Virus record (IMG/VR): IMGVR_UViG_3300033156_000724
Source of the DNA: an uncultured virus (IMG/VR IMGVR_UViG_3300033156_000724)
Lineage: Duplodnaviria; Heunggongvirae; Uroviricota; Caudoviricetes
Strand: one strand, 5' to 3'
Length of the DNA stretch: 64,000 bases
Part shown: positions 21,259 to 38,412 of the stretch, piece by piece
Layout of the letters: every line of letters starts with the position of its first letter
How positions within the stretch are numbered: the first letter of the stretch is position 1
Made by a program: the position numbers and the translations under genes
Notes under the pieces: model-generated
The model's database searches: none
Told to the model about the DNA's origin: nothing
What the model saw: the letters and a program-made list of their open reading frames with translations, nothing else

Positions 21259-23296
21259 AATATGTTGCCGGGCACCCTGATGGAGGTAGTGCCGGCGAGC
21301 ATAATATTAATGTTTCGCGGCTTCTGGTAACTGCAACATAAAACATTCTACGTATTGCATCTTGATTATTTTTTTCCATATATGCCGCCCTGCTAAGATC
21401 CGGAAATACAACAACACAGTCTGCCTCTCCCCCTTTCACCGAATGGACAGTTCCAATAATAAGTTTCGGTTTTTTGCGCAAAGTATCAGCTCCACAATAT
21501 TTAAGAACAGACATAGGATAATTTAAACTATTCATCCTGGATTTTACAACGTTATTTTTAAGCCATTGTATATCTCTGCTTAATGCAGCATTAACAGCAG
21601 CTGGCGATAATATATCATTAAGAACTTCACGAGTAGTGTGAAGACCCATTGCATGTTCATCAACCGCCTTTTCCAAAACTGCTAAAGCTTTCTTTCCTTT
21701 TTTCTTGATCAGGCCGGTTTCTCCAACTTTAATAAACCTGGCCCACTTTAAAAATTGCGGAACACTCCAATAAGCATCATCAGATTTATCAAGAAAATTT
21801 ATAAGTAAATTGATAGAGGATACTCCGTTTTGTCTGTAGAATGGATTCCAATCATATCTTTGCAATCGATATGGATTATGAAATGGGATACCCTTAGCTC
21901 GTAATAAGTGCTTTAACGGTTCAAGCATATAGGAACATGATGCCAAAAACATAACATTTTTATCTTGTTTTATATATTGAAGAGCAAGCTCCAAAACTCC
22001 ATCTGGAGCTTTGAAATTATCATTATGATAAATAACTTCACCAGGAACCGGATCAAGATTATCATCCATGCGAGCCCTATATTCTTTTGGTTCCCTGATA
22101 GTAACTTTTGAGATTATTTTATTGGCAACCTTTAAAACCGTTTCTGGAACTCTCCAACTTTGTTTTAATACCGTTTTAAATTCTTTTGATATGGGCGGAT
22201 TAATAAGAGATTTAACATCAGCGCCTATCCATTCATATAATGTTTGATCATCATCAGCGCACATAACAAACCACTCCATCGCTGCGCCCCATGATCTGAT
22301 CAGTTTAAATTGCACTGGTGTGAAGTCTTGGGCTTCATCTAAAAACATAACAGCAGGATTATTAGGAGCAATTGGAAACTCCTCGATTGCATTTTCAATT
22401 AAATCTTCAAAATCAACAACATTAAGTTCTTTTTTGAATCCATCCCATGCTTTCTTAAAACTTCTAAGGCTAACCCTCCATGTACTTTCTGGAATCATCT
22501 TGGCTTTCAAAATCTGGATTTCAGACAAAACTTTATCACCGTTATTTTGTGGATTAAAACAATCATCATATTCATCTGCTGACTTCCCGCTCCCTGATAA
22601 TAACCAACGAGGATTTTCAGTATTCCATTCTTTAATATGCTTAATTGCAAGGTCCGGCTGGCCAAACGCTCGATAACATAAACTATGAAGAGTGCCTACG
22701 TTTCGTTCATCAACCTTAATATCCCTAGAAGCAATTTCTTTGGCCGCTGCCCTGGTAAATGATGCAACCATAACTTTATCATGACCGTATTTTTCAATTG
22801 CTCGGGGAACATGCCGGCGGGCTAGTACTCGGGTTTTGCCTGTGTTATGAACAATGAATTCATTAGCTACATAATTATGATACGGAGAAGCCATCGCCAC
22901 AGCAAAGGTCGGTCCTTTACCAACATACTCAATGCGTTTAATGGTATCTTTAGCAGGAAAAACACATCCATCATAAACATTAACAACACTCCCGGGTTTT
23001 AAATTGGCTAACTCAACAAATTCACCCGGAGTTTTAAATGGATGATCTATCGTTGTTGTTATTGATCTGCCGGATATTGTAGTTGTTTTATATAATTTTT
23101 GAATTTTGCTGTATGAAATATATAAAATATCATGGGGTCCGATTAACTCACCCTGCAATGATAATAACTGTTTAGGAATAGTCATACAGTTAATTTTAAA
23201 GTATGCCATTTCTATTGTATATGGTCTTCCGCTGATATTTAAAATAGTATCAACAGCCAAACATCCTGGCGGACCGAATATACGGTATTCTTTCAT
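21236..23296 (-). CDS. UvrD/Rep-like SF1 helicase containing a mini-intein
   Basis: Split Walker A GPPG|TGKT, SFTRAAA, DEAQD, DDDQ, TVHSVKGGE, YVAVTRS. Confidence 0.9.
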   Translation of the reverse strand: MKEYRIFGPPGCLAVDTILNISGRPYTIEMAYFKINCMTIPKQLLSLQGELIGPHDILYISYSKIQKLYKTTTISGRSITTTIDHPFKTPGEFVELANLKPGSVVNVYDGCVFPAKDTIKRIEYVGKGPTFAVAMASPYHNYVANEFIVHNTGKTRVLARRHVPRAIEKYGHDKVMVASFTRAAAKEIASRDIKVDERNVGTLHSLCYRAFGQPDLAIKHIKEWNTENPRWLLSGSGKSADEYDDCFNPQNNGDKVLSEIQILKAKMIPESTWRVSLRSFKKAWDGFKKELNVVDFEDLIENAIEEFPIAPNNPAVMFLDEAQDFTPVQFKLIRSWGAAMEWFVMCADDDQTLYEWIGADVKSLINPPISKEFKTVLKQSWRVPETVLKVANKIISKVTIREPKEYRARMDDNLDPVPGEVIYHNDNFKAPDGVLELALQYIKQDKNVMFLASCSYMLEPLKHLLRAKGIPFHNPYRLQRYDWNPFYRQNGVSSINLLINFLDKSDDAYWSVPQFLKWARFIKVGETGLIKKKGKKALAVLEKAVDEHAMGLHTTREVLNDILSPAAVNAALSRDIQWLKNNVVKSRMNSLNYPMSVLKYCGADTLRKKPKLIIGTVHSVKGGEADCVVVFPDLSRAAYMEKNNQDAIRRMFYVAVTRSRETLILCSPALPPSGCPATYFEWPKRR
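22844..23263 (-). mobile_element. Mini-intein (Hint only, 140 aa)
   Basis: Starts CLAVDT, has block B TIDHPF, ends NEFIVHN followed by Thr; no endonuclease domain. Confidence 0.9.
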
Positions 23297-23307
23297 AATG
23301 CTTCAAC

Positions 23308-25461: not shown

Positions 25462-25468
25462 TTATACC

Positions 25469-25528
25469 TCCTATCGTTTTTAGTTGGTCTGCACTACTTT
25501 TTGGCGTTAGAGTCCAACGTTGTTGCCA
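25469..25528 (-). repeat. Degenerate attC-like site
   Basis: Similar to the 26279/29091 family (ctttttggcgttagagtc); cores eroded. Confidence 0.5.
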
Positions 25529-25738
25529 CAAACCATTCACGCCACACTTCAGTTATCTGCCAGAACATAGCTCTAATATTTGTAAATATCATGCGAGCAT
25601 TCTTACGTTTGTAATGTTTTACAGCCGACATAAAAAAAGCCAGCGCACCATTGATGTGAAACCACACCAGGAAGTATTTAGCTTTAGGATTTCTCGACAT
25701 TTTCCTAAACACAAGATAATATGTTTTAGTGATAAGAT

Positions 25739-25834
25739 TCATAATGTCTGAACTCACCAGTGGGCAGGAAACTCAAAATGTCGATTTACTCCGATAGCCG
25801 ACCCTGCCCATCTGCGTGCAGCGCCTGGTTATCA
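25739..25834 (-). repeat. Long attC-like site
   Basis: tcataat...tgggcagg/cctgccca inner stem...ggttatc. Confidence 0.7.
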
Positions 25835-26033
25835 AAATATCGTTTTTCAGTTTTCTATTTTGCAATTTTCAATGTCTGATATGGTCCTATGCCAATGTCG
25901 GAATCATAATACATCGGATAAATATACCATCCGTCTGATTCTCGGCATATCCCGCCATATTTCAGATGCGTATACCATCCAGATTCTTCTTTTCTCCATT
26001 CAAAATGACTGCCACTCATAATCTAAATTCCTT

Positions 26034-26091
26034 TTATAACCACATTAGTTTAGCAGGCGGCTATTCGCTCCGCTGGAACGCTTTGTTATGC
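26034..26091 (-). repeat. attC site
   Basis: ttataac...gttatgc, 58 bp imperfect palindrome. Confidence 0.8.
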
Positions 26092-26278
26092 TATCCTCTC
26101 AATCGCCTTAGCTAACGGCAACCATTTCGATACACGTCCCCCACATTTGGCGCATATATATCCGTGATCGTCTGTATACACTTTTCCATATTTTTTACAT
26201 GCGGGGTTGTCCAGGTTGCAATACCTGCCTCCAGGCTTCTCAAATTTTATTTTGTTTTTTTTTCATTTTTTCCTCAAA

Positions 26279-26339
26279 GCATAAAACTTAGCTGACCTGC
26301 GGCTGCTTTTTACCATCAGAGTCGAGCAACTGGTTGTGC
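26279..26339 (-). repeat. attC site
   Basis: gcataaaac ttagctgacc...gtcgagcaactg gttgtgc; ORF 26288-26548 reads into it (HNQLLDSD). Confidence 0.8.
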
Positions 26340-27194
26340 TGTATATGTATATTATCTTCCAAATCCAAGCCACATTTCTTGCAGGAATTGTCAATTCCAT
26401 TATTTACATAGTAATGGGCAAAGGTTTTTTCGAGCAAGCTTATCCTTTTCTCGTTTTTTGTTGGTGTGTCAGGATAGCAAACATGACAAGAAACTTTATA
26501 TTCTGTCCCGCATTTTTTACATATTACACCCATAATTACTCCTTTCACTCGTCGGCCGCCACATTGTTTATAAAAGTTTAAGCTCGTTCGGCCATACTAG
26601 GCATTTATGATTCCCCATATTATATCTTACATCTGGCTTTATATCAGTGTAAATAATATATGCAGCTACATGCTTACTATCTATTGATGATTTTATTATT
26701 TTTTCTACTGTAGCATTACCCAAATAATCATGGACAACCCTATCACCAATTTTAAACTTTTCCGCTTTTTTCATTTTTTTCTTTAAGTTTAGCAATTACA
26801 AGGCCAACGGCATAATCATTAACCCATCTGGGGTCATCCATGAATGCCATGACTGTCGCTCGGTCACGATTAAGATCATACAAAATCCCCTCGGCAGGTT
26901 GTTTTATAAACTCCTCTATGTCTGCCTCTTTTGGTCCGTCCAATGTCATAAAAACAATTTTACCTTCTTTTTCTTTTTGAAGGACCAACTCTTTTAATTT
27001 CTCTTTATCAGTCATGGTTCATCCCCTTATCGCTATCAATTTAACTGAAGAAATATCCTTCACTTTACATGTACAGCTTTGTTGTTTTAAAGAATAAGCG
27101 TCTTCCGCTTGGTTCCATGCCCATGATTGGGCAGGTGGAATCTTAGCTCTTTTACAATATTTCATTTTCCATCGCCATTTGTACATATTTACCC

Positions 27195-27245
27195 CTCTAA
27201 TCAGCCGCCGTGCTCTTTTCGGTCAGCTGCATTGCTTGATTATGC
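27195..27245 (-). repeat. Truncated attC-like site
   Basis: cagccg...cggtcagctgcattgcttgattatgc. Confidence 0.6.
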
Positions 27246-27423
27246 TTTTTAGCAGAAAACCTATGAATATAAGTATCGCCTCCAGTATATGTTATCCTAC
27301 AATCTTCTCTTCGATCTCTGTGCATTGCCCTATGACGTGTAATTCCAAGATAGTGAAAACTTTTTTTACAGGTATGGCAATAACAATTTTTAAACCTCGT
27401 CACTTTCATTTTACCCTTTTGAA

Positions 27424-27478
27424 GCATAACAGATTAAGTCAGCAACGTTTTTCAATCTGCCAGGACAACTGATTATCT
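27424..27478 (-). repeat. attC-like site
   Basis: gcataac...gtcagca/tgccaggac...attatct. Confidence 0.65.
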
Positions 27479-27727
27479 GTCTCATCTTTCACCAATTCTG
27501 GTTTACCGATAAAAAGTGCTGCACTTCTAAAAGCATCAAAACATTGATCATGTACGCCGTCTTCGTCATTGGCCCAAATAATGATTCCTTTCAATAATGC
27601 TTCAATATGGTTTTTAGCTTCTTGTTCCACATTGTAGTGTGGACAGTTAGGGTGATGTTGTGTAAGTAACAACACATTATCACGTGCCCAATTTTTACAT
27701 TCGCAATCTATCATATTGCTCCTTCCC

Positions 27728-27849
27728 CGATAACGATTGAATTAAGCGATACGCCCACAAATCGGGGATACCAAATCATAGCCAAGCGGATCGGGCTTCA
27801 TGTCTTTGCAGCACGGATTTCTCACATCTGCTTTAACGGGTTGGTATCG
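27728..27849 (-). repeat. Long attC-like site
   Basis: cgataac gattgaattaagc...gctttaacgggtt ggtatcg. Confidence 0.6.
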
Positions 27850-28092
27850 CCAACCCGTTTGTGTTTGATACCAATCACACATTCTTGTGTTCCCATAACA
27901 GCGCATGCAAAACTTAGAGTCTATGCCATTGCATATTGGACAACCCTTTTTCCTTTTGTCTTCTGATAATGATTTCATTTTTTACCTGTTTGTTTTTTTT
28001 GTTATACTGTTTTTATATTTTTAAAACTTCTCGCATAAGGCCATGTTTTTCACATATTTCTCGGCACCTTAAAAAATGAGTGGTTAAGTCCA

Positions 28093-28440
28093 TCATTTCT
28101 GTAGCACCATTTCTGTAGCACGGCCGCCTGTAATTTCTTTTGATGTTTTTATTAACATCGCAAGCGTTTCAACAAAATCCTTATTATGCACTTTTTTGCC
28201 AGCTATTAATGCTCCTTCCAACGGCTCTTTATAATCCCGTCCACTGAACACAGGGGTTATACCCGATGTTCTTTGTTGCCAAAGACGGTTAGCTTCCATG
28301 CCGTCTTTTGATATTGGCCCTTGCGCGCCGCATGAAACACATTTTATTGCTTTCCACGGTTTGCCTTTTGTTGTTGATAAAAGTGTTAGTTTCAGATTCT
28401 CGGTTTCTCCGCAAAAAGGACATTTTACCAAATGATCCAC
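28093..28440 (-). CDS. Lar-family (restriction alleviation-like) zinc-ribbon protein reading through an eroded attC
   Basis: KCPFCG...IKCVSCGAQGP...ANRLWQQR; internal ttccaac...gttatac at 28216-28262. Confidence 0.65.
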   Translation of the reverse strand: MDHLVKCPFCGETENLKLTLLSTTKGKPWKAIKCVSCGAQGPISKDGMEANRLWQQRTSGITPVFSGRDYKEPLEGALIAGKKVHNKDFVETLAMLIKTSKEITGGRATEMVLQK

Positions 28441-28457
28441 TTTTTATTTCCTCCAGG

Positions 28458-28516
28458 ATATAATATACTTAGATTAGCCGCCCATTCTTTGAGTCAGATA
28501 GATTTACTTGTTAGTT
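28458..28516 (-). repeat. attC site
   Basis: atataat...gttagtt, 59 bp. Confidence 0.65.
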
Positions 28517-28667
28517 TTTTTGCTTCTTTATAATCATGCCGTAGGCCCACACATCGAACCGTGCCTTTTTGATCTTCTATATATTTTCTTTGGCGATGAG
28601 AATAATCCCCGTAAATCATTTTTCTTATTTTTTTTGATTTCTTGCCATTCATCTTTGTCTCCTTAAA

Positions 28668-28718
28668 AACTAACGTTTAATTAAGCAGCTTTTGTCTGCC
28701 TGAATTTCTTGGTTATGT
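28668..28718 (-). repeat. attC site
   Basis: aactaac...aattaagcag/ctgcctgaatt...gttatgt. Confidence 0.8.
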
Positions 28719-28794
28719 GTCGCCCCCACTCTGGAATCAAACCAGTAGGCTGAAGACTAGGACAGCCAGCCCGCCCATCAGGGATCAGGAGGGC
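28719..28794 (-). ncRNA. ORF-less cassette with tRNA-like fold
   Basis: Minus strand: GCCCUC/GGGGGC terminal stem, CUGG-UUUGAUU-CCAG T-like arm, GGCUG/CAGCC stem; bounded by two attC sites. Confidence 0.4.
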
Positions 28795-28854
28795 ACATAA
28801 CACTAAACTGAGCCGCCGAAGTTTTTATTGATCGCCCCCAGTGACTTGTTGGAA
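28795..28854 (-). repeat. attC site
   Basis: acataac...gttggaa, 60 bp. Confidence 0.8.
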
Positions 28855-29090
28855 GGAAATTTTTGGTATATTAATTTCCTTTATAGTTTTTTTTGCTAAA
28901 TCGATTTCATAAAGATGACCAACATAACTTTCTGGCTCAAAATTAGAAACCGACTGTTCTCTTTCCCAAAGTAAAATTGCTGCCTGTTTTGGCGATGAAA
29001 CAACTTTTTGAGTTACTGGCATATTTTTTATGCCAGTAAAATAATGAGACATTAAAATAATAAATAATAGTATTTTCATAACAAATTTCC

Positions 29091-29151
29091 TTCCAACAAT
29101 TTAGCTGACCGATGCTACTTTTTGGTGTCAGAATCTAGCAGCTTGTTATCT
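29091..29151 (-). repeat. attC site
   Basis: ttccaac aatttagctgacc...tctagcagctt gttatct. Confidence 0.8.
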
Positions 29152-30842
29152 GTCTTCGGTATTTTTACTGTGGGCATAGGAATTCGTGGACATTTAATAG
29201 CTGGTTCCTTGTAATTACATCCCCATCGAACACAATGAGAAGAGCCAAAAATGTCAGCAGTGTCAAAATATAGCCGATGCCCAAAAATTTTACATAATAT
29301 ATTCACAACAAACTCCTTTATGTATGAATCAGCGTTGAGTGTTCATCCGCCGGACCGGCTTGTTAAGTGTTTTATAATTATTAAGTAAAACTGTTGAACA
29401 TTTTGTGCCACGTTGAACACTCGATTGCACGGTAACACCCTCAACAGCTAAATCCCTATCTCGAATAGAGGCTAAAATATGCTCTAATGTCGCGGATATT
29501 ATTAAGGTTCCGTCATTATGGACAAGTTCCGCATAGATGGTATTTGGTCTCAGCTGACCATGTTCGTTTCCATCCATTCTAATATTTTGTAAATGATATA
29601 TTTCCATTTTTTTCTTCTTTCTTTGATTCCGGTGCTATGATTTTAGAATAACGAATATAATTCTCATCAATATTCACTTCCACTATTATAAAACCTGGAA
29701 TAGTAGTTTGAATTATTTTTTTTATCATAGCAGTCTTATCAGTTGACTTTGATCCACTTATTGAGACTGTAATAGTTTTTTCCCAAATATCTTGATTGAT
29801 AATCATAAATTTTGCTTCTATATAATTCAATAGATCCTGAACATCTTTGTTTGGCATGTCCAATTTGGGATTTATTTCTTTTATGTATTCAAAAAAATCA
29901 CGCCTGTCTTCTTCTGTTAAAAAATTCATATTTCCCCCTTTTCCGCTATCCCGACAACATGGAAATCAGCAATCTTCTATCTTTGGTTTTGGCAGATTTC
30001 CAACATTATCTAATTCGGCGGCCAGCTTATGAAAATAAATTGCACACATATCACCGTAATCATCAACAGGACTGCCGTCCTCGTCAAGAATATTACTAAA
30101 TTCTTCCGGGTTTTCGGAGTATCTCCTTGCCCATTCGTTAAAAATAATAGCCATTCTTTTGTGAGTAATGCTTGTTGTTGGTGGTGCCTTTGGCGCATCG
30201 GGCTTTACCGCGTTTGCTGGTCTTACATTACTTGCTTTTTTCATAGTGATTACCTCCAACGATTATTTATTATTAGATTCCCAGTGAGTCACTTCAACAT
30301 AAGCCTCGTCATGTGTATCAATATCCCACATAGGCTTTCCAATTACATCATTCATCCCTAAAAACTCCGCTTCAATTTCTTCTGTAGAAGAAACACTTCC
30401 AAACCGCCAATAATTTACACGGCACCGTGTTTTTTGACCAACGCTGGGCAACTTTTCTTCAACTGAAATCATAATATATCCCTCCGATATTTACCTTTTT
30501 TGTTATATTTTATCCCAAAGCTCATCAGGCAGTCATATATTATTGTCTTTTTTTTCAAAAGCGCTCCCAGCAGTAAAAACAAGCTCAATTTCCTGATCTT
30601 CAATAGACCTTAGAAAGGCTATAGTTTTATATCCTTCTTCTTGCGCTTCAATTTCTCCAGGTAAAATATTTCTATATCGTTCAATTAGATTATCTTTCAT
30701 TTTTACTTTCATACTACCCTCTCTTCAGGATAGATATCTTTTCGTTTCCACTTTTATTGCGCCGTAAAAGTTTACGTGTCATTATATCTTTCCGTCGTAT
30801 GCTTTTTGGCGGCGCCACCTCACATACACGCCGGCTTAAGAA

Positions 30843-30900
30843 GACTAACGTAGAGTTGGAGCTGTAAGCATAACGAATCAGCTGAAACGGTTTGTTATAA
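30843..30900 (-). repeat. attC site
   Basis: gactaac...gagctg/cagctg...gttataa. Confidence 0.75.
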
Positions 30901-31106
30901 ACCCTCATAACGCCAAGGATTCTGTAAACAAATTTGCCACCGACCACCGTTTTTAATTATATTTAACGCTGCTTCTTTAGTTTTTGGATTGTGCTTCAAT
31001 CCTTTAACACTATCAAATCTGTCCAATTTACAATTTATGCCCCTATTAGTATTTATTGGGCCAGAACAAAATTTCTTACAAGGTATCATAATAGCCCCCT
31101 TTGGGT

Positions 31107-31186
31107 TTATAACGTTAAACTGACTTGATCATTTGCAATTTCCGAATTATAATATGCTTGTTATGTGCAAATGTAATTTGTTATGC
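31107..31186 (-). repeat. attC-like site
   Basis: ttataac...catttgca/tgcaaatg...gttatgc. Confidence 0.7.
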
Positions 31187-31315
31187 GGTGTTGACCCTGG
31201 ATCATATTTTTTATTCAACGTTTTCGTGCTGTAGGTAGCATTGACATTATAATGAATGCTCTTACCGATATTTTCATATCAGACCTTCACACTTCCAGCG
31301 ATTTCAAAGAAAGCC

Positions 31316-31362
31316 GCATAACGTTTGCCTTCACCTGACCAGACCGAAAAACTTTGTTATCC
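31316..31362 (-). repeat. Truncated attC-like site
   Basis: gcataac...gttatcc; ccgcataac is complementary to gttatgcgg at 31180. Confidence 0.6.
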
Positions 31363-32017
31363 ACCTGTTAATTTACTGCTGCATCATATCCCCCTGTATA
31401 AATTAACAGAGTCTTCTAAGAACAATCGAACCAGTCGGTGTTTCGTCCCCTGCGGAAGAGTTGTCTTTATTGCGGAAAAAATTTTATTTGCATCTTCATT
31501 GTACAGGGTTTGTGCTTCTTCCAAAGTGTCCGTTTGTGGTAAGTCTGTGTTTATTTCAATCACTATCCCATTGATAGATTCCTCTTTTCTTATCGGGTCT
31601 GCTTTATGTACAATAATTGTATGGTTCATAATTCCTCCGTAAAATAACAATTTTACCTTTTCCCAGTCAGTACACGTCTCAGTATCCTCATGCACATCTT
31701 TTTTGTGCAGTTCACACCATTTCCATTCACCCAACGGGTCGAGTTCGTGGTGTCTATCGCTGCAATGTTTACAATTATTGCAAAACTCTTTCATGTCATA
31801 ACCGCCCGCATCACAGGCTTATCCTATGTGTGTTGCTACTGCCTGATCTGTAATTTAAAATTTTGCGCCGGCATCCTAAAAAGATTTTCAAACATACCTT
31901 GATTTTCAACATCTTTGGGCCATTTCTGAAAATATACCTGTCCTTTTTTGATCATATGTACATGAATAGCTATGCTGTTTCTCTCAATTACCATTCCTGG
32001 TTTTATATTAATCATTT

Positions 32018-32404
32018 TCATTGTAGGCCCCTAACGTCTGGACTCACGGGCGGTGGTCTTTTGCCATCCCCTGGCTTGTTATGTATTTTGCGTAGCATTA
32101 ATTCAAGCCTCGATAACGCATTCCATGCTAAGTGCGCTTGATGCAATAACCCAGAATCTTTGTCTTGATCCTCATGGCGTTCAGCGAGAAGATGACGCCA
32201 GAGTGCGTCTGTGTATCGAATAAAGCCATTCTCTACGCTTTGCCACCCGCCACGAGAGTATTTAATTGCTCCAAAAGTCCCTACTTTGGCAACCTCCGTT
32301 AAGGCTAAAGAAAAATCAGAAAGAACACCTGCAAGGACTTTACCAGCATCCAGCTTTGCGCCTTGTTCGTGTTGATTTAAACCATTTGGATCTTGTTCAT
32401 GCAT
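32018..32404 (-). CDS. dATP/dGTP diphosphohydrolase domain protein (DUF5664-like)
   Basis: GAKLDAGK, FGAIKY..GGW, YTDALWRH, DSGLLH.AHLAWNAL. Confidence 0.8.
   Translation of the reverse strand: MHEQDPNGLNQHEQGAKLDAGKVLAGVLSDFSLALTEVAKVGTFGAIKYSRGGWQSVENGFIRYTDALWRHLLAERHEDQDKDSGLLHQAHLAWNALSRLELMLRKIHNKPGDGKRPPPVSPDVRGLQ
32029..32084 (-). repeat. attC site
   Basis: ccctaac...gttatgt, overlapping the gene 3' end (HNKPGDG). Confidence 0.7.
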
Positions 32405-32418
32405 ATTGTTCCTTTATG

Positions 32419-32479
32419 GTATAACGGTTAAGCTGACTTGCCGCTGCTTTTTGTCGTCAAGTCCAGCGGCTTGTTAGCT
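32419..32479 (-). repeat. Canonical attC site
   Basis: Minus strand AGCTAAC-AAGCC-GCTGGAC...GTCAGC-TTAACC-GTTATAC; L'' is one base longer than L' (extrahelical G). Confidence 0.9.
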
Positions 32480-32648
32480 GCTTTAACCAATGTTTGCATA
32501 TCTTGCTCAATATCTCTTAAGGCAAATACAATTGCAATCCAACCGCAAACAAGCCTTAAAGCCGGGCCATCAAACTCAAACTTCCATCCGCCATATTTCC
32601 CGACACAAAAATAAAAAGTAAACCCATTCATTTTTTATCCTTTCAGCC

Positions 32649-32784
32649 AGCTAACGTCCTAATAACCTGCATGTAGGGCTTGCACACCCCTTAAAAGAGC
32701 ACTCCCACCCATCTTCCCCTGGCAATTATCGACTCTTACCGACAAGCCGACCCTACGCGTCAGAGTTTGTTTGATTGATTATAC
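32649..32784 (-). repeat. Long attC-like element, copy 1 of 3
   Basis: agctaac...gtagggcttg...caagccgaccctac...attatac; near-identical to 33020-33108 and similar to 36296-36382. Confidence 0.75.
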
Positions 32785-33019
32785 GTTTCTGCTTCATCAA
32801 CCCCCGGATCATCTTCTTGACATCATCCATACAGTCTATGTTGAACACACAGCGAGACGATGGCCAAAAGCAGTATTGACGCCATGCTCCATACCACTTG
32901 ATTTGCCCAAGCACGAGACCGGAAGACTTCGATAAAATATTCCATATTTCGGTTTTGCCGGTTTCTCCAACTTTATCAAATTCCATGTAACGGCTTTCAA
33001 TCATGTTCCCTCCTTAGAA

Positions 33020-33108
33020 ATATAACGTCCTAATAACTTGCATGTAGGGCTTGCACACCCCTTAAAAGAGCCCTCCCACCCGTCATCCCCTGGCAATTAT
33101 CGACTCTT
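33020..33108 (-). repeat. Long attC-like element, copy 2 (one arm lost)
   Basis: taacgtcctaataac.tgcatgtagggcttgcacaccccttaaaagagc...ggcaattatcgactctt shared with copy 1. Confidence 0.75.
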
Positions 33109-33262
33109 CCTCAACCTGAACGGTCACGGAAATCGTCAGAGTGTGTGTTTGTGTGCACACTGGACACTTCACATGTTTAATTACTTCCAAACCGAAGCAG
33201 GGCTTAATTTCGACTTCAAAACCCTGCATGCATCTGCCGCATGGGATGATTATTTTATACAC
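33083..33262 (-). CDS. Small zinc-ribbon protein (59 aa, not in the ORF track)
   Basis: GGAGG RBS and GTG start; MYKIIIPCGRC...KCPVCTQ. Confidence 0.55.
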   Translation of the reverse strand: MYKIIIPCGRCMQGFEVEIKPCFGLEVIKHVKCPVCTQTHTLTISVTVQVEEESIIARG

Positions 33263-33560
33263 CTACGCCTCCATTTGTTCACGAATTTTGGGATGAGCAA
33301 CTTTTAAGTGTCAAGTTAAGTACCTAATTACCCTCTATATTGTTATACAAACATATTGCCAAACAAAACCAAAGTACAACAACAAACCAATCACAAACAG
33401 CACTTAAATCTTTTTCAAGCAAATTTATAACAAGATTAGTAAGAGTTATAAATACACATAAAATAATTGCAGATATATATATATTCATATTTTTAAACTT
33501 CTCTGTAAAAAGTTGTGCAGTAGCTGCCTTAAACTCCGTTGTAAGGATTTATTAGCATTC

Positions 33561-34211
33561 CTACCTAAAATCTTTTGCTTTGATTTTGGCAATGACCCGT
33601 TCTCCTCTTCGATTAAACAATTCAACTTTTGGACGCATAACAAGCCCTTCAGGTAACATTTTTCGTAACTTCGATTCGTACCCACCTTTGACCATTGCAA
33701 CACCTTCAAGCAACGTGCCCTCACCAATAACGGGTACTGTCTTAATCATAAGCTTCTCACCGATATCCTTAACGTTGTGATGTTCAAGCCACATACCATT
33801 AATATTCACATCGAAAAGGATAAAACTAACGCCGTTTGAAATGTAATTGCCACCACCTTTTTGGATTTTGGCTCCATAACCTTCACCATACAAACATAAT
33901 GGAGGCAACTCATTAGTTATGAAGATTTCAGGATAAAAAAGTGCAGCAAGTTTATCAAGGAGGAATTTTGGAATATCTGCCCGGTCTGTTTTCCCGGCGA
34001 AAGTAACGTGTTCACCGTTCCACTTCACACGGATATTCGTGCCATCTACTTTCTCGGTAAATATCCATATATTATTCTTGAGATAGTCGAACTCAGGCTT
34101 TGCAAATTGACCTTCCAGTAATGTTTTATGCTTCGTCGCAGGATCACGTAAATATACTGTTTGAATTTTATGATACTCTTTCATTTTGTAATTTCTCCAT
34201 TTGTCAACCAC
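33561..34211 (-). CDS. RNA ligase (Rnl2-like nucleotidyltransferase)
   Basis: Motif I EKVDGTN, YGEGYG, FILFDV, EGLVMRP, AKIK. Confidence 0.85.
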   Translation of the reverse strand: MVDKWRNYKMKEYHKIQTVYLRDPATKHKTLLEGQFAKPEFDYLKNNIWIFTEKVDGTNIRVKWNGEHVTFAGKTDRADIPKFLLDKLAALFYPEIFITNELPPLCLYGEGYGAKIQKGGGNYISNGVSFILFDVNINGMWLEHHNVKDIGEKLMIKTVPVIGEGTLLEGVAMVKGGYESKLRKMLPEGLVMRPKVELFNRRGERVIAKIKAKDFR

Positions 34212-34213
34212 AA

Positions 34214-34684
34214 TTATTTATACAGTATCTCGGTCATTTCTTCATCTGCTGATTTTTTTATCTTTTCCACTCTTTCCTTTAACAACATCTTGGTTTTTTG
34301 TTGTTCTTTTTCATAAATTTCAGCAATTATTTCTTCCTCTGCTAATTTTTCTATCTTTTCCACTCTCGCCTTTAACATTCCTTCTAATAAAATTAGATAA
34401 TTGATAGAATAGCCGATCTTTTTGTCAATCATTGCGTCTGTTAACTTCTCAGGCGAACGATCTGACATTTCAACTAAATCTAACACTGAAACAATATGTT
34501 CTACCCACATACCGACCAGGGCTTTTTCTGGTGTCGTGTCTAATATTCTCGCCGCAATGTTAAAATTATGGTATCTATCACAACCCATCGCATATTCTTT
34601 AGCCTTTTCTGATAATACAGACCGGATTGATTCTATTCGGTCATCCACTATTTCATCAAACTGTGTATCGTATTTCATAAACAC
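34214..34684 (-). CDS. Phage nucleotide-modification-associated (MazG-like fold) protein
   Basis: LSEKAKEYA...DRYHNF...INYLILL. Confidence 0.5.
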   Translation of the reverse strand: MFMKYDTQFDEIVDDRIESIRSVLSEKAKEYAMGCDRYHNFNIAARILDTTPEKALVGMWVEHIVSVLDLVEMSDRSPEKLTDAMIDKKIGYSINYLILLEGMLKARVEKIEKLAEEEIIAEIYEKEQQKTKMLLKERVEKIKKSADEEMTEILYK

Positions 34685-34685
34685 C

Positions 34686-34761
34686 TCCTAACGCAAAGTT
34701 CACTTATCGGAAAGCCGACAAGGATAGTTTTTTGCCGTCAGAGTCGAGCGACTGATTATGC
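34686..34761 (-). repeat. attC site (possibly hybrid)
   Basis: tcctaac...gccgtcagagtcgagcgactg attatgc. Confidence 0.7.
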
Positions 34762-34959
34762 TGTTCCAATACCTTGATTCGCTTCTGTAGCAACATGTTT
34801 TCAGCTTCGAGATTGTTTATTTTAGCTTGTTGTTCATGCCGCTCATTTATTTCCATCTGTCGAGAAATCCATTCACATTCTTTAGGATTAAAACAATCTC
34901 TACCAATTACACCTCCACAACTGTTACATATCATAATCATTTCTCCTTTCCCCAAAAAG

Positions 34960-35014
34960 ACATAATATCTAAGCTGAACCACCGGTATCAGTCGGCTCAA
35001 GCGGCTGGTTAGAT
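34960..35014 (-). repeat. attC site
   Basis: acataat atctaagctga...ctcaagcggctg gttagat. Confidence 0.85.
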
Positions 35015-35226
35015 TTCATCCCCATAATCCTGCATATCACGTTCCCGTTCGGCTAATATGCATTGACTCACATGATAGGAATTATGAAGCTCCGCAAGTA
35101 GCCAATCGGGGGTATATTTAGGATTCACCCTCTTAAGAATTCTTTCAATACTATCTACAACAGATTTTGCCTGAGTCCGATGATACTTTCTTGCTGACTT
35201 TGCTCCCAAAATAACCTCCTTTAAAA

Positions 35227-35286
35227 ATCTAACGTCTTAGCTGACCTGCGGCGACTTTTGGCGTCCGCTCAAGCGGCTGGTTATAT
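35227..35286 (-). repeat. Canonical attC site
   Basis: atctaac gtcttagctga...ggcgac tttt ggcgtcc...tcaagcggctg gttatat. Confidence 0.9.
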
Positions 35287-35817
35287 AGGTAAGTTCACTG
35301 TTGATTTAACTTCATTACCCCAAACATCCCAGCCATCTCGCACTTGCCGTGCAAAGATATCGGCTCTATTCTCAGCTAAAGATTTTATCATCTCATAAAA
35401 TTTATTTGGTTTTTGGGAATGCTTAATATTTGGTGCTGAAAAAGCTAAAGGGATTAACGGTCGTTTTGGCCATAAATCAGGTTTTTCCTTATATCCAACC
35501 AATATGAATTCAACATTCCATCTAAAACCAAACAATGGCATCCCTGCAGATTTACCATAAGTTTTTTTCCATACACCTGTAACAAGGTGACTAAACCCCC
35601 ATGTCTCTAATACCTCTTTAGCATCAAAGAGATGCTTTTGGGTAGCCCACAAGAATAACCAACAATTGTCATCTGCAATACTATCTATAGGCAATGATTT
35701 GATTTGTTCTATGCTCATAGTTTTGTAATCCATTGTCACCTGTTTTGGCCGTACCTTGCGTGTAAGCTTCTTTACTGGCCAGGGAGGATCAACAACAATT
35801 AATCCATATTTTTTCAT
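35281..35817 (-). CDS. MT-A70 family adenine methyltransferase
   Basis: VDPPW, LFLWAT, HSQKP, DIFARQ.RDGWDVWGNE; stop codon lies inside the attC R'' core; start taken at MKKYG. Confidence 0.88.
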   Translation of the reverse strand: MKKYGLIVVDPPWPVKKLTRKVRPKQVTMDYKTMSIEQIKSLPIDSIADDNCWLFLWATQKHLFDAKEVLETWGFSHLVTGVWKKTYGKSAGMPLFGFRWNVEFILVGYKEKPDLWPKRPLIPLAFSAPNIKHSQKPNKFYEMIKSLAENRADIFARQVRDGWDVWGNEVKSTVNLPI

Positions 35818-35839
35818 AAGGTCTCCTATACGAAATGCC

Positions 35840-35897
35840 ATATAACATTTAGTTTAACAGGCAAGCTTTTCCGCTCTGCTGCAATGACTGGTTATAT
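35840..35897 (-). repeat. attC site
   Basis: atataac atttagtttaacagg...gttatat; similar to the 26034 site. Confidence 0.8.
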
Positions 35898-35956
35898 TTT
35901 TCCACTTCAAAATAGCTCTGCAATAGTTGCACACTTTATCCCCTCTACGTTTAGAT

Positions 35957-36015
35957 GAATAATATAAAGCTAACTTGTGCTGTCTTTTGGCGTCAAGTTG
36001 AGCGACTTGTTAGCA
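35957..36015 (-). repeat. attC site
   Basis: aagctaacttg...caagttgagcgactt gttagca; ORF ends ANKSLNLTPK. Confidence 0.8.
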
Positions 36016-36295
36016 ATTTTTGTGAGATCATCTAACACAGATAAATCATTATTTAGAAAGCGCGTGATTATGGTGGCAGGATCAATAGTACAACTATGTA
36101 CTAATTTATCGCTATTGCAATAAGGACAACTTGTCTTATGATCAAAATACGAAGCATGCCATTTTTTACAAGAACGGCAGCAATAGACAAAGGTTACGTG
36201 CATACTATAGTTATATTTCAATTTCATCCTAATAATCCTTTATGGTTATATTAATGATTTGGAAAACTTGAAAACTTCCACAACACCTCCTCCAA

Positions 36296-36382
36296 TAAGG
36301 TTTGCACACCCCTCAGAAAGGCACTCCCACCTGTCTTCCCCTGGCAATTACTGGACCCTACCGACAGCCCAACCCTATACAG
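36296..36382 (-). repeat. Long attC-like element, copy 3 (diverged, array-proximal)
   Basis: ttgcacacccct...cactcccacc..tcttcccctggcaatta...accgaca..c.accct. Confidence 0.65.
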
Positions 36383-36398
36383 TATTCTTTGATTTTAA

Positions 36399-36800
36399 TT
36401 ATAATTTCTCCAAAAAATTAAACTCCTTTAGATTGCTTGAGCAACAATCAATTAGCTCCTGTGTTGTTACAATCCCTCCATCTATACATTTCACCAAATC
36501 TTTTTTTGTTATTCGTTTACCGTATTTATTATAGTTTGCATATATAGTTTGTTTGGATTCAGAAATTCCGAAGTGCTCCCGAATTTCACGCTGTTTCCAT
36601 CTACCTTTTGTTAGCTTAATCATTGCTCTTAATCGTTCTCCTACAAACTTAGTAATTTTTATAAATAGCTCTTCTTTTTCAGAGTCCAGCATTTTCTCTG
36701 GATTTTTCATCATCATGCTCCTCGCTTGGCTGTGGCCCGATTTCTCTGGGAACCCGAAACGCAGAACGTGATGTTCTTTCATGGTTATCAAGAACAACAT
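36399..36800 (-). CDS. Hypothetical protein, possibly HTH (true start probably near 36716)
   Basis: KQREIREHFGISESK HTH-like segment. Confidence 0.45.
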   Translation of the reverse strand: MLFLITMKEHHVLRFGFPEKSGHSQARSMMMKNPEKMLDSEKEELFIKITKFVGERLRAMIKLTKGRWKQREIREHFGISESKQTIYANYNKYGKRITKKDLVKCIDGGIVTTQELIDCCSSNLKEFNFLEKL

Positions 36801-38412
36801 TAAACTTCTGATTTATACATCCCAACCTTCTAATCAAGGTTCCCAATTGTCTTTGTCGTATGTCAGCACCCTTTTTTATTTTAGTCCATAATGAAAAATT
36901 ATCTAAAAATATATACCAACACCCATTATGTATAAACGGCTGCTTATCAATAACAGCCTCATCTAATGTAAGCTTGTTGGAGCTTTCCAGATAATCTTCT
37001 ATCCAATATTTAACCACTCCCTTATCACTAACTTCCTCCCCTATTTCTCGAACATTTTCTTCTGCTAATATTAACAACTGTTGAATATGATTATCCCATT
37101 CTTTTGGTTTAAACCGGGTAATAATTTTACCTGTTGTAGCTGCAATTTTATTTCTAAACTGAGGTTGTGATGTAAAATGTTGGATTTTTAAGGTGATTTC
37201 TTCTACCTTGCCGTTATATTCAATATGAATTACATAATCCGGGTCTTCAGATAAATATTTCTCAATCTTAATAATCTTAACTCCCATCCGGATACTTACA
37301 TCTTTACGTAATTTTTCTGATGGGCTATCTTCTTCAGATGGATTTAATTCCTCAGATAATTGAAGATTTTTAATGTCCTGCTGAATTTCAAATGATTCGG
37401 AAATTGCGTCGTCTCTTGCATTGATAATTGTACGAGCATAATATTGAGTATTATTAAATTTTAGATCATGACCATGATATTCACGATGGGCTATTAAAAG
37501 ATCAACTATTTCTTGCGGTTTCCATTTTGCTCTGGCTGCAAACCCAGCCAGCGCCATATCGTAACCACTTGGGCTAGTATCATTTAAATCTCCTTGCCTC
37601 TGATTTTCCCATGTTGCCTGAAACTTTCCGAATATTGCCCACAACTGCGCGAACTTGGCTGGCGGCGGCTGGCGATTTTTTGCAAGAATAAATCTTTTGC
37701 CAGCCAGATTGATTTTACTCGAATCGGTTGAGCGGTTATCGTTTGTATCGTCAGGCAAAAATTCCTCAAGATCACCAGGATTATACCTCAGATCGTTAAA
37801 TTCTATTATTTTAACAATAACAGGATCTTTCTTGCAATTATAACTCTCCGGGGGCCGTAAGATTCTAACGAGATCTTGGACACTATCAATGCTCCATCCT
37901 TGTTGCATTGCAATAGTGTGAAAACAAAGTTTGATACGACGCAAAAACTTCATTGCACTGATACGATCTTCAGGAGTCTTGAGTTCCCACATTTCTTTGA
38001 ACACCCAATATGCCTGAAGGCCATGCCCAGAATGCACAACCACAGTTGGGTCAAACCCATGACCGTGGATAACGCTCATAGCGTCGTCTAATGTAGGCGG
38101 ATATCTTTTGCTTTTATGATGACCACAAGTTCCAAAATCAATATCAGCAAAGACAGCCGGCAATGCTATTACCGGCCTGCCCTTGCTTTCATCAAGATGA
38201 CAACGTTGATCTTTTTTGTATTTTTTACCCGATAAACCAACCTGAAAATATTGATCTCTCTTTGGGTTTTTTAAAATAAAATCAACAGCCTGATCGATAT
38301 CAGGCGTCCAAAAAGAACTGCCACCCCTTTTCTTCCCGGGTCTCCATATTAACAGGTGTGATCCATCAGGCTTATCATCATAAAGCAACCTGAAAAAATC
38401 ACAAAGATTCAT
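36679..38412 (-). CDS. RepB-type DNA primase / replication protein
   Basis: FADIDF, VVHSGHGLQAYW, RILRPPESYN. Confidence 0.8.
   Translation of the reverse strand: MNLCDFFRLLYDDKPDGSHLLIWRPGKKRGGSSFWTPDIDQAVDFILKNPKRDQYFQVGLSGKKYKKDQRCHLDESKGRPVIALPAVFADIDFGTCGHHKSKRYPPTLDDAMSVIHGHGFDPTVVVHSGHGLQAYWVFKEMWELKTPEDRISAMKFLRRIKLCFHTIAMQQGWSIDSVQDLVRILRPPESYNCKKDPVIVKIIEFNDLRYNPGDLEEFLPDDTNDNRSTDSSKINLAGKRFILAKNRQPPPAKFAQLWAIFGKFQATWENQRQGDLNDTSPSGYDMALAGFAARAKWKPQEIVDLLIAHREYHGHDLKFNNTQYYARTIINARDDAISESFEIQQDIKNLQLSEELNPSEEDSPSEKLRKDVSIRMGVKIIKIEKYLSEDPDYVIHIEYNGKVEEITLKIQHFTSQPQFRNKIAATTGKIITRFKPKEWDNHIQQLLILAEENVREIGEEVSDKGVVKYWIEDYLESSNKLTLDEAVIDKQPFIHNGCWYIFLDNFSLWTKIKKGADIRQRQLGTLIRRLGCINQKFNVVLDNHERTSRSAFRVPREIGPQPSEEHDDEKSRENAGL

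Follow-up and report, generated by a model that had tools for sequence, protein, structure and literature searches.

The complementarity of the two ends of a gene cassette is a long-known feature of integrons and is not new, the start of a cassette being reportedly complementary to its own inverse core in work attributed to Hall, Brookes and Stokes in 1991 and to Stokes et al. in 1997. The attC sites of integrons are described as combining RYYYAAC and GTTRRRY cores with an L''/L' helix whose '' arm bears an extrahelical base, with spacers left unpaired and a loop that varies (PMC5027507). Clusters of two or more attC sites that share a strand, are separated by less than 4 kb and have no integron integrase nearby are defined as CALINs (Cury et al. 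2016, PMC4889954). Integrase-free attC clusters with methyltransferase cassettes have also been described in phages, where an anti-defence role was suggested and five phage attC sites were recognised and recombined in vivo by IntI1; Table S1 of that study includes 14 phages with 2-3 predicted sites (Qi et al. 2023, PMC9892861). On the bacterial side, sedentary chromosomal integrons have been presented as stores of cassettes for defence against phages (bioRxiv 10.1101/2024.07.02.601686).

The locus described here resembles integron arrays in all of the attC features named above and in having one open reading frame (ORF) and one site per cassette. It lies in a 64,000-nucleotide stretch of DNA from an uncultured tailed virus (the window, to which all positions refer) and occupies 25469..36393 on the minus strand, as delimited by a covariance model (R1) and a table of sites. 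The array has the features of a CALIN; its carrier is a phage, whereas CALIN carriers are bacterial replicons in the portion of the survey consulted, which also reports more than 10 sites in only 6.6% of bacterial CALINs, compared with roughly 20-26 here (PMC4889954). Unlike the phages in the accessible part of Qi et al. 2023, this one holds about two dozen sites between core replication genes; the 16-site case given there is a prophage with a fragment of a host integron, and neither an own-end footprint nor an attC family shared across viral contigs is reported in that part (PMC9892861). With sedentary integrons the locus shares a long array, small and mostly unknown cassettes and a place in phage-bacterium conflict, but those integrons belong to bacteria and have IntI and attI, whereas the window has a phage carrier and counter-defence-like cargo (10.1101/2024.07.02.601686). 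Compared with integrons, the array is without IntI, attI and Pc, and many of its cores are mutated; its bulged base can be C, G, T or A, where integron attC sites mostly have G on the bottom strand, and the pairing of a cassette's own ends reaches 15 nt, past the 7-nt integron core. We regard the array as very probably a phage-borne, integron-type cassette array without integrase (CALIN), with the end pairing as a footprint of recombination at G|TT. Phage-borne CALINs are a kind already published in 2023, mostly with 2-3 sites, of which this array is a large new member, and the phage setting is what the present analysis adds to the original prediction.

Setting and gene content

The window is a phage genome, with tape-measure, tail and PKD-fibre genes at 1-20 kb and primase, helicase and SNF2 genes on the minus strand (Pfam, PHROG); no match to the cassette phage was found among GenBank phages. 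The array lies in the early/replication gene block, between an upstream core gene for a 577-aa primase/polymerase-like protein (36679..38412, minus strand; phrog_2478), which has 72% identity to its counterpart in the relative L001, and a downstream core gene for a UvrD-like helicase (21236..23296, minus strand; Pfam). In this relative (L001/G007; 92,469 bp, rated 100% complete), the two flanking genes are joined directly, the helicase gene overlapping the stop codon of the homolog of the 577-aa gene; the whole array block is absent, and a search for attC sites there gave 0 matches.

Approximately 40 small minus-strand ORFs are split into cassettes by the sites of the array, which comprise 20 model-supported sites, three long attC-like elements and three half-site remnants. 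The attC sites are all on the minus strand, in the same orientation as the genes. Between 25.4 and 36.0 kb, R1 gave 12 matches with E<0.05 and 8 weaker ones, all 20 on the minus strand, and the best match elsewhere in the window has E=0.53. Six ORFs of the array have phage-typical Pfam or PHROG matches, including a DUF1660 protein and one assigned to an unnamed PHROG. The recognisable cargo among them, all on the minus strand, comprises an MT-A70 family DNA methyltransferase (35281..35841, 186 aa; PF05063, 2.5e-28; phrog_359), an RNA ligase (33561..34211, 216 aa; PF09414, 4.9e-17; phrog_548) encoded within a four-ORF stretch without internal attC sites, a dNTP pyrophosphohydrolase with a dATP/dGTP diphosphohydrolase N-terminal domain (32018..32404, 128 aa; PF18909, 6.3e-22; phrog_5033 and phrog_801) and a Lar-like restriction-alleviation protein (28093..28440, 115 aa; phrog_599) whose match to PF14354 (2.9e-06) falls just under the cut-off. 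Such cargo may serve the phage, and expression of the cassettes would come from read-through with the early genes, which share their orientation.

Architecture and inventory of the sites

In a site, R'' ends in AAC and is separated by a 5-nt spacer from L'', which carries a single bulged base; a loop that varies follows, and then a 3' half made of L', a 6-nt spacer and the G of R'. A cassette runs from TTRRRY and a ribosome-binding site through one or a few small ORFs to its closing attC site. The covariance model was built on 23 sites, nine from the window and 14 from other viral contigs. Its AAC/GTT cores are paired in 93% of cells, and the 6-bp L helix shows compensatory changes in four of six pairs (15 cells), a level matched by 0 of 500 shuffles; slid registers of this helix pair in 10-40% of cells, and the covariation check of the 23-site model found zero compensatory change in the rival register. 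The bulged base lies on the 5' arm of the inner helix, which is kept by compensatory changes. These are canonical integron attC sites. In bacterial loci with true integron integrases, R1 gave 14 matches at 11 of 80 loci, all of them upstream of intI and divergent from it.

Small gene modules bounded by short, recombination-prone sites also include the pdif (Xer) modules of Acinetobacter plasmids and the promoter-stem-loop cassettes of T4-type phages; half-sites specific to a module can move along with it. Unlike the sites in the window, pdif sites (28-bp Xer sites) and promoter-stem-loop elements (promoter hairpins) have neither the AAC...GTT hairpin geometry nor the single-strand bulge. Regulatory repeats do occur in phage early regions, and several R' boxes hold a Shine-Dalgarno sequence (for example GTTGGAAGGAAATTT and GTTAGGTGAC) that pairing could mask. 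On this reading the elements would not be recombination sites at all: they would be intergenic hairpins with a regulatory role, acting as terminators, RNase III sites or promoter-stem-loop cassettes, or else the inverted ends would pair in the mRNA and cover the ribosome-binding site. We give this reading next to no likelihood: terminator-like and promoter-like sites are not enriched, terminator-like hairpins numbering 13 against 10.5 expected, and do not coincide with array sites; the fixed AAC/GTT, the 5- and 6-nt spacers and the bulged, covarying L helix are integron geometry as described in the part of PMC5027507 consulted; and the same model matches sites beside true IntI genes. The original prediction had likewise set terminators and REP elements aside, which is further borne out by most single arrayed sites folding no better than shuffles.

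The sites that follow are all on the minus strand, with R1 scores in bits. The first of the array, site Q (36278..36393), is of the long type and was recognised visually and through its homology with sites J and K; it was missed by R1, its R'' is degenerate and ends in AAG, and its R' (GTTGTGG) was placed by hand. Site P (35957..36015; 48.0) has a degenerate R' (ATTATTC), and the R' of site O (35840..35897; 43.8), GTTATAT, opens the MT-A70 cassette, whose attC is site N (35227..35286; 69.7); the R' of N, GTTAGATTT, in turn opens the next cassette. Core changes are seen in site M (34960..35014; 31.7), where R' reads ATTATGT (G to A), and in site L (34686..34761; 25.3), where R'' ends in AAT and not AAC. 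Two further long-type sites are K (33020..33153), a 95% repeat of J over 86 nt that is probably defective or recombinant because its 5' arm mismatches its 3' arm, and J itself (32649..32775), which has a 55-nt G-rich core and opens the next cassette with its R', GTTAGCTG.

Site I (32419..32479; 66.7) has fold z-scores of -3.5 and -2.8, and site H (32029..32084; 40.8) is the attC behind the dATP/dGTP diphosphohydrolase gene. Site G (31316..31362) is short (47 nt) and weak (10.2), and its R', GTTATGCGG, opens a mini-cassette of 20 codons. Site F (31107..31186; 13.8 over 31107-31166) has candidate R'' cores at 31160 and 31180, the outer having been chosen by hand. Beyond site E (30843..30900; 31.5), half-site D (29340..29368; nhmmer partial match 29343-29365) has R'' and L'' only, the 3' half being absent. 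There follow site C (29091..29151; 51.7), the attC of the DUF1660 cassette, and sites B (28795..28854; 45.2), A (28668..28718; 15.9) and Z (28458..28516; 18.9), the last with a degenerate R' (ATTATAT). The distal part, defined by R1 matches (25469..27478), is more decayed and contains sites S7 (27424-27478; 12.9), S6 (27186-27245; 14.1), S4 (26279-26339; 53.7), S3 (26034-26091; 13.5), S2 (25739-25834; 16.0) and S1 (25469-25528; 9.1, partial) as well as half-site X (~26545-26575); an R' remnant, Y, lies just beyond it (27728-27734). Across the site table the terminal AAC of R'' is kept in 21 of 25 cases and the initial GTT of R' in 17 of 24, and in two stretches of 4-6 ORFs no site lies between the ORFs. 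With these site-free stretches and the three half-sites, a large part of the array is decaying and may be inert. Together with the mutated cores and the poor folding of most arrayed sites, these features count against the integron-type reading of the array.

Pairing of the cassette ends

The original prediction held that the core opening each cassette is the reverse complement of the core closing that same cassette and differs between cassettes. All eight pairs that it quoted lie where it placed them and are exact reverse complements, with recomputed lengths of 10 nt (28665/28510), 8 nt (28794/28712 and 32648/32473), 11 nt (31103/30894), 9 nt (31314/31180 and 35225/35008) and 7 nt (35840/35280); the pair 29085/28848, quoted as 13 nt, extends to 15. 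To place these against chance pairing we used a table of 26 sites and remnants (19 from the covariance model, 7 by hand), in which 22 cassettes were testable because the table holds their start, supplied by R' of the site upstream, as well as the R'' that closes them. Each pairing was scored by how many bases in a row are identical once past the conserved G, with a cut at six or more. Such runs were found in 10 of the 22 own pairings. Pairing a start with the R'' of another cassette gave them in 17 of 555 combinations, and pairing within single arrayed sites in 1 of 23, the mean runs of the three groups being 5.50, 2.95 and 2.87, respectively; neither the observed total nor the count was reached in any of 100,000 permutations (p<1e-5). 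The end pairing is thus cassette-specific and not a product of chance. Naming each pair by its upstream and closing sites, runs were 14 for C>B (the longest of all), 10 for F>E, 9 for A>Z, 8 for N>M and S7>S6, 7 for J>I, B>A and S4>S3, and 6 for O>N, while G>F gave 8 with the outer R'' of site F and 5 with the inner.

The outer R'' of site F had been picked with its pairing already known. A blind repeat was restricted to the 19 full-length model matches with ends set mechanically from match coordinates and adjacency taken as found; it uses the inner R'' of site F and counts that pair as negative. Own pairings again exceeded wrong ones at a run of six or more (8/18 versus 16/343, permutation p ~1e-5). 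The original prediction named only positive cases: extension beyond the conserved 4-5 bases is present in 10 of the 22 cassettes and absent in the other 12 (absent in 10 of 18 in the blind test). The end test gives the same pairs in both orientations and so does not tell the top strand; the strand call is made from the model matches and from where the bulged base sits.

Folding after circularisation in silico at G|TT, the check put forward with the prediction, gave a mean of -8.25 kcal/mol against -5.95 for the arrayed sites (Wilcoxon p=0.0006) and -6.37 for the same sites joined to the starts of other cassettes (p=0.009); in 5 of 20 cassettes the own start folds better than all 23 other starts. 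Three cases with a mutated first base and extended pairing are informative, and in two of them (S7>S6 and S4>S3, the exception being M>L) base 2, rather than base 1, is where the match begins, which a cut after the G would predict. The arrayed sites are hybrids of neighbouring cassettes: pairing within a site does not exceed the random level, and the stem is restored by the cassette's own start.

The proposed circular cassettes and recombination at G|TT are supported, the ends pairing as that model predicts. A cassette would travel as a circle, cut and rejoined between the G and TT of R', so that the opening TTRRRY(+) of an integrated cassette would be the partner of its own closing R'', and any R' standing in the array would be a hybrid formed with the following cassette; the ends would therefore be complementary pairwise and differ between cassettes. 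Own-end pairing is also found in other arrays of the same attC family (23 of 54 adjacent versus 154 of 2862 wrong pairs). The footprint records recombination at some time and is silent on whether it took place in the phage or is ongoing.

Recombinase, origin and movement of cassettes

A profile search of the window found no integron integrase. Its sole tyrosine recombinase (42756..43727, minus strand) is Xer-like and was rejected as an integron integrase, scoring 41.9 bits against TIGR02249 (cut-off 265) over positions 10-179 of 315 only, with XerA, XerC-like and XerD proteins as its best solved relatives. That this enzyme is the cassette recombinase, and the locus an integrase-domain-free integron of phage origin, could be argued from the lack of any other recombinase in the window, from its location 6 kb upstream on the strand that carries the array, and from its best family match, the XerA/integron-integrase model (109 bits, cut-off 220). 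We consider this very improbable in view of the low integron-integrase score and of a full-length ortholog (50% identity) kept in G007, where there is no attC in 92 kb; moreover, of the seven other viral loci with this attC family, a single one has a tyrosine recombinase within 10 kb when ORFs of 230 aa or more are considered, and it is unrelated. The recombinase may instead be an integron integrase of the host cell acting in trans during infection, on an array that would have begun with an insertion at a secondary site and later grown by attC x attC recombination; we lean slightly towards such a putative host integrase still acting on the array. A bacterial reservoir is shown solely by the looser model matches and by metagenome contig L283, in which an IntI N-terminus (296.8 bits, cut-off 265) stands beside an attC that exactly matches the phage pattern.

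The missing integrase, the many mutated cores and the half-sites would suit another origin, in which a segment of a bacterial chromosomal integron was taken up en bloc by illegitimate recombination or imprecise excision and has been inert since, its ends a fossil of recombination in the bacterium. A Vibrio anguillarum prophage with 16 attC of its host's integron is a precedent in the section of Qi et al. 2023 that treats it (PMC9892861). No cassette-level difference separates the window from the near-identical record G001, which also favours this origin and counts against the main reading. We nevertheless judge it unlikely, though not far-fetched. The cargo that can be recognised is of phage type, the cassettes run in the direction of the early genes and the G+C of the array agrees with that of the remaining phage; among the records compared, the nearest to the window is a viral contig, with 96% of words shared, which fits the phage setting. 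In addition, the same attC family occurs in the replication modules of at least seven other viral contigs, one of them with terminal repeats and rated complete, as against a single genome contig with the exact pattern among 185,579 bacterial species genomes.

Variant adjacency also speaks against en bloc uptake and for a phage-borne array whose cassettes recombine. In the public run X1, one contig has a different cassette preceding the cassette that starts at site N, and base 35233, where the break falls exactly, is the G in the R' of site N; the joint is a single low-depth contig aligned at 90% likeness, and none of the six loose ends listed for this comparison lies at an attC core. The ORF of the site P cassette (35970-36227) has a 64%-identical homolog with attC that occurs twice in the metagenome array L272, with neighbours that differ from those in the window, and one of these copies opens with GTTAGCAA right after an attC, complementary to its own R'', TTGCTAAC.

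Layout and surroundings of the attC array

An unfiltered search of the whole window with R1, a covariance model of the attC sites, returned 12 matches at E<0.05 and 8 weaker ones, all on the minus strand between 25.4 and 36.0 kb, while every one of the 11 matches found elsewhere or on the plus strand had E >= 0.53. A profile built from 12 hand-picked sites was confined within the window to ~25.7-36.0 kb and to a single orientation. Three long attC-like elements (J, K and Q) and three remnants (D, X and Y) were placed by eye, and the partial match S1 was positioned. Cury et al. (2016, PMC4889954) describe a CALIN as a cluster of two or more attC sites that share a strand, lie within 4 kb and lack an integron integrase. 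The widest spacing between the 20 minus-strand R1 matches is ~2.2 kb (site L to site I), and the array, with sites as called by R1, is a CALIN under this definition because no integron integrase accompanies the sites.

The array is phage-borne, lying inside the phage genome and not in flanking host DNA, with tail and replication genes on both sides. Pfam and PHROGs searches identified a tape-measure protein, tail proteins and PKD-fibre proteins on the plus strand at 1-20 kb, and a UvrD-like helicase, an SNF2 helicase, a primase/polymerase-like protein, a sliding-clamp-like protein, RadC and ParB on the minus strand. Site Q, the first in the array, comes after a gene overlapping the primase-like gene, and no recognisable site precedes it; the strongest core decay is at the low-coordinate (distal) end. 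Small minus-strand ORFs lie between paired ends with a ribosome-binding site just inside each higher-coordinate end, and the stretches at 29.4-30.8 kb and 33.2-34.7 kb each hold 4-6 ORFs and no internal site. Within the S4-S3 cassette, a nine-T run (A9 on the coding strand) at 26255-26266, right after a minus-strand ATG, breaks one apparent small ORF into two frames.

Window positions 22,843-36,749 lack a counterpart in a related phage record, L001/G007 (92,469 bp, rated 100% complete, DNA identity about 66%), in which an R1 search gave no attC match at E <= 0.01. In this record the stop of the 577-aa gene homolog overlaps the start of the helicase gene. Because the flanking genes adjoin in this attC-free genome, the array is an accessory block occupying a variable spot between core genes. 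Repeating the search for relatives with an alignment as the query returned L001 again and no other record, and among GenBank phages neither the array, searched as DNA, nor the 646-aa ORF at 57957-59897, searched as protein, had a match. A module of an RNase T-like exonuclease and a tyrosine recombinase (window 41400-44700) lies inverted and on the other side of the helicase at L001 14150-17120, and has thus been rearranged between the two genomes.

The closest record, the IMG/VR viral contig G001, has 96% of sampled words in common with the window and carries the same sites, and differs over 57 kb only by small indels and one substitution. The indels (for example at 3032, 22770, 24386, 28094, 28261, 28544, 30728, 36450 and 41997) are 2-52 bp long, in most cases a length not divisible by three, and include several tandem duplications; they are either assembly noise or unusual microdiversity. 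An apparent lack of sites A and Z in G001 was dismissed after direct alignment, in which the differences were small indels and the cassettes were the same. A 14-nt direct repeat, CATTTCTGTAGCAC, occurs twice at 28080-28107 in the 114-nt spacer behind the Lar-like gene, and one copy is absent from both G001 and the public sequencing run X1.

Site architecture and the pairing of cassette ends

An alignment of 23 sites, 9 from the window and 14 resembling them in other viral contigs, yielded, on the gene-sense (minus) strand, the consensus ATAAC-CAGCC-GCTnGAC...(loop)...GTCAGC-TnAAnC-GTTAG. RNAalifold returned no structure on the first MAFFT alignment, and the structure was then set by hand and tested. 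The order of R'' core (AAC end), 5-nt spacer, L'' plus one extra base, variable loop, L', 6-nt spacer and R' (GTT start) corresponds to integron attC geometry as laid out by Nivina et al. (2016, PMC5027507). Paired cells make up 93% of the AAC/GTT columns in the 23 aligned sites, and the outer inverted cores RYYYAAC and GTTRRRY are present. Counted from the site table, 21 of 25 R'' cores in the window have the AAC end and 17 of 24 R' cores the GTT start, the remainder being single-base variants (AAT, AAG, ATT, TTT, GTA and GAT).

The L''/L' helix is 6 bp long with an extrahelical base at alignment column 16, and 91% of its cells are paired, against 10-40% in slid-register controls. Compensatory changes occur at 4 of the 6 pairs (15 cells), and the covariation score was reached by 0 of 500 shuffles; an alternative register through the second GAC had zero compensatory change. 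Since the bulged base sits on the 5' arm of the minus strand, that strand is the top strand, matching cassettes with ORFs on it. Naive hairpin scans (AAC...GTT free fold, arm-only fold, anchored alignment and gapless inner helix) could not separate the sites from background. Of 6 short arrayed sites, each folded on two strands, just 1 did better than shuffles; S2 folded at a z of about -2, which J did not reach. Rfam at gathering thresholds had no match anywhere in the window.

The long elements at 32649-32775, 33020-33153 and 36278-36393 (minus strand) have in common a G-rich core of 55 nt that reads GGGG..GGG..GGG..GGGG in the gene sense, a possible quadruplex motif. As single strands these elements fold poorly. 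This long-type core pattern had no exact match in IMG/VR, and the 5' arm of site K is mismatched to its own 3' arm.

The original prediction held that the core opening each cassette is the reverse complement of the core closing it, and quoted eight end pairs. On reading positions 28,000-36,500, all eight were found in place as exact reverse complements of 10, 8, 13 (extendable to 15), 11, 9, 8, 9 and 7 nt. To score pairing across the array, 16 bases from the R' of the upstream site were compared with the reverse complement of the cassette's own R'' and its flank; this comparison is blind to strand, as both orientations predict the same pairs. A run of at least 6 after the G was present in 10 of 22 own pairings (mean run 5.50), compared with 17 of 555 pairings to another cassette's R'' (mean 2.95) and 1 of 23 pairings within one arrayed site (mean 2.87), and in 100,000 permutations neither the observed total nor the observed count was ever reached. 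Shuffled pairings are thus not equally long. The prediction that the complementarity is specific to each cassette stands for those 10 cassettes and does not extend to the other 12, in which nothing matches past the conserved bases. The outer R'' of site F had been picked knowing the answer and 7 sites had been hand-placed; we therefore repeated the test blind on 19 full-length model matches with mechanically assigned ends, and 8 of 18 own pairings again had such runs against 16 of 343 others (p about 1e-5).

The start of a cassette (TTRRRY...) is accordingly complementary to its own R'', and the arrayed R' boxes are hybrids with the crossover at G|TT. In extended pairings with a mutated first base, the match sets in at base 2 for S7>S6 (the cassette opened by R' of S7 and closed by R'' of S6) and for S4>S3, and takes in base 1 for M>L; the base-2 starts lend weak support to a cut after the G. 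Folding followed the same pattern: sites circularised in silico had a mean of -8.25 kcal/mol, better than both the arrayed sites (-5.95 kcal/mol, p=0.0006) and joins to foreign starts (-6.37 kcal/mol, p=0.009). Rebuilding the sites gains 2.3 kcal/mol on average, and in 5 of 20 cassettes the own start was unmatched by any foreign start.

A reading of the elements as regulatory hairpins is very unlikely. Terminator-like sites were counted 13 times, for an expectation of 10.5, and promoter-like sites 68 times, for an expectation of 51.8 +/- 8.1; neither kind coincides with the attC sites, so terminators do not account for them, as the original prediction had anticipated. Own-end complementarity and the G|TT crossover were reportedly described by Hall et al. 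in 1991 and Stokes et al. in 1997; these are textbook integron biology, and the pairing by itself therefore adds nothing new. Our literature search did not find an explicit statement of the own-end rule, which is usable as a cheap, alignment-free check that a suspected cassette array is real.

Recombinases, related sites and evidence of cassette movement

Action of the phage's own recombinase on the sites is unlikely. The sole tyrosine recombinase of the window (42756-43727) is Xer-like, with XerA, an XerC-like protein and XerD as the closest solved structures; it scores 41.9 bits against the integron-integrase model (cut-off 265), aligning to model positions 10-179 only, and has a full-length, 50% identical ortholog in the attC-free relative. 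The window does not encode an IntI with its specific extra domain and hence holds no complete integron, with no intI to which an attI site and a Pc promoter could be anchored. No integron integrase above the cut-off turned up when G001 and four further viral records with attC sites were searched in six frames. At 7 viral loci with the attC family, ORFs of 230 aa or more within 10 kb include a tyrosine recombinase at L242 only, and that one is neither IntI nor related to the recombinase of the window. This viral contig carries a reverse transcriptase (RVT_1) and the unrelated recombinase, at 1124-2077 and 3981-5039, a few kb from its array. A host integrase supplied in trans would be the most economical mechanism, and experiments have shown that IntI1 recognises other attC sites from phages (PMC9892861).

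A strict subfamily pattern matched 7 viral contigs, 34 stretches of metagenome and a single bacterial genome contig, and R1 detects arrays in many of these loci. Adjacent pairs there had runs of at least 6 in 23 of 54 distinct own pairings and in 154 of 2862 wrong pairings (p<1e-5). The strict pattern had been substituted for a looser one, AGCTGAC...AGCRRCTKGTTR, for which no fetched bacterial locus among the matches listed passed the profile.

Positions 1-825 of metagenome contig L283 encode the N-terminal part (275 aa) of a true integron integrase (296.8 bits, cut-off 265), divergent from a cassette whose attC (1396-1459) fits the phage pattern. Relatives of this integrase at 55-88% identity are found in MAGs and genomes labelled Desulfobacterota, Nitrospinota, Methylococcales, Verrucomicrobiota and others, and R1 located 14 sites in 11 of 80 loci with integrases of this type, all upstream of and divergent from intI. 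The phage sites therefore belong to a family used by real integrons. The ORF of the L283 cassette is inverted relative to its own attC.

Movement of individual cassettes was assessed from two sources. The ORF at 35970-36227 has a 64%-identical homolog with its own attC among different neighbours in the metagenome array L272. A second, truncated copy in L272 starts with GTTAGCAAGGAG right after an attC, and GTTAGCAAGGAG is the exact complement of the R'' TTGCTAAC of this ORF family; in the window the start of the cassette has decayed to ATTAGGA. Sequencing run X1 holds, as contigs, 8% of sampled words, and its uncovered parts are uninformative. One X1 contig follows the window up to base 35233, which is exactly the G of R' at site N, and continues after 11 other letters at 28478 inside site Z; in it, therefore, the site-Z cassette and not the methyltransferase cassette precedes the cassette starting at site N. 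This joint, in a single contig at depth 5 with 83 letters on the shorter side and 90% likeness, fits a cassette-precise rearrangement. Further X1 joints are 34759>35967 (31 letters) and 36005>29142 (36 letters); those with fewer than 30 letters on one side (24163>35889, 24243>37132 and 29621>36401) were ignored, and none of the six loose ends listed for X1 falls at an attC core. The main alternative, that a bacterial array was captured en bloc and is now inert, we regard as rather doubtful; if true, it would alter the place where the footprint arose and not the meaning of the footprint.

Cargo and a possible phage cassette pool

The block comprises about 40 minus-strand ORFs. Pfam or PHROG matches were obtained for a Lar-like restriction-alleviation protein, a DUF1660 protein, a dATP/dGTP diphosphohydrolase-domain protein, an RNA ligase, an unnamed PHROG family and an MT-A70 DNA methyltransferase; the other scanned ORFs of the block matched no family at the thresholds used, save for a weak sub-threshold zinc-ribbon match. 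Judged from these assignments, the mix would fit a role in phage counter-defence and takeover, in line with what Qi et al. proposed for cassettes encoding methyltransferases (PMC9892861), and some 35 cassette ORFs that lack annotation are candidates for anti-defence genes.

In their 2023 screen of 10,705 phage genomes, Qi et al. report 17 CALINs, with 2-3 sites per phage in rows of the supplement and a 16-site case that is a prophage with host integron DNA (PMC9892861). A search of later literature on phage attC arrays and anti-defence turned up nothing closer. Phage-borne integron parts were thus already known, and of the attC arrays seen in phages the present one is among the largest. It lies between core replication genes, is absent from the relative and has methyltransferase, anti-restriction, RNA-repair and nucleotide-metabolism genes aboard. 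Together with the attC family in several other viral contigs, it supports the 2023 proposal that phages participate in the integron cassette economy, and suggests that they use this economy to stock counter-defence genes.

A broader possibility, which we put forward tentatively, is that phages keep and trade an attC cassette pool of their own: a phage-adapted family, often with a ribosome-binding site inside an extended R' box, spread across unrelated phages as early-gene banks of counter-defence and takeover genes and shuffled by the infected host's integron integrase. Such a pool, if real, would mirror bacterial integrons in their role as anti-phage defence banks.

A 16-nt start, GTTAGGTGACTTATG, and its matching R'', GTCACCTAAC, are common to cassettes at L241 2725-2900, L245 1912-2150 (both attC-bearing viral contigs) and L280 344-510, and the start places a Shine-Dalgarno sequence and an ATG inside the extended R' box. 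These are not one simple shared cassette, because their interiors are unrelated and do not align. A second attC subfamily, CACGCAGATGGGCAGGG ... CCTGCCCACTGGTGAGTTCA, occurs at window 25739-25834 and at 526-659 of L245, an unrelated viral contig, and its presence in two unrelated viral genomes points to a common cassette pool.
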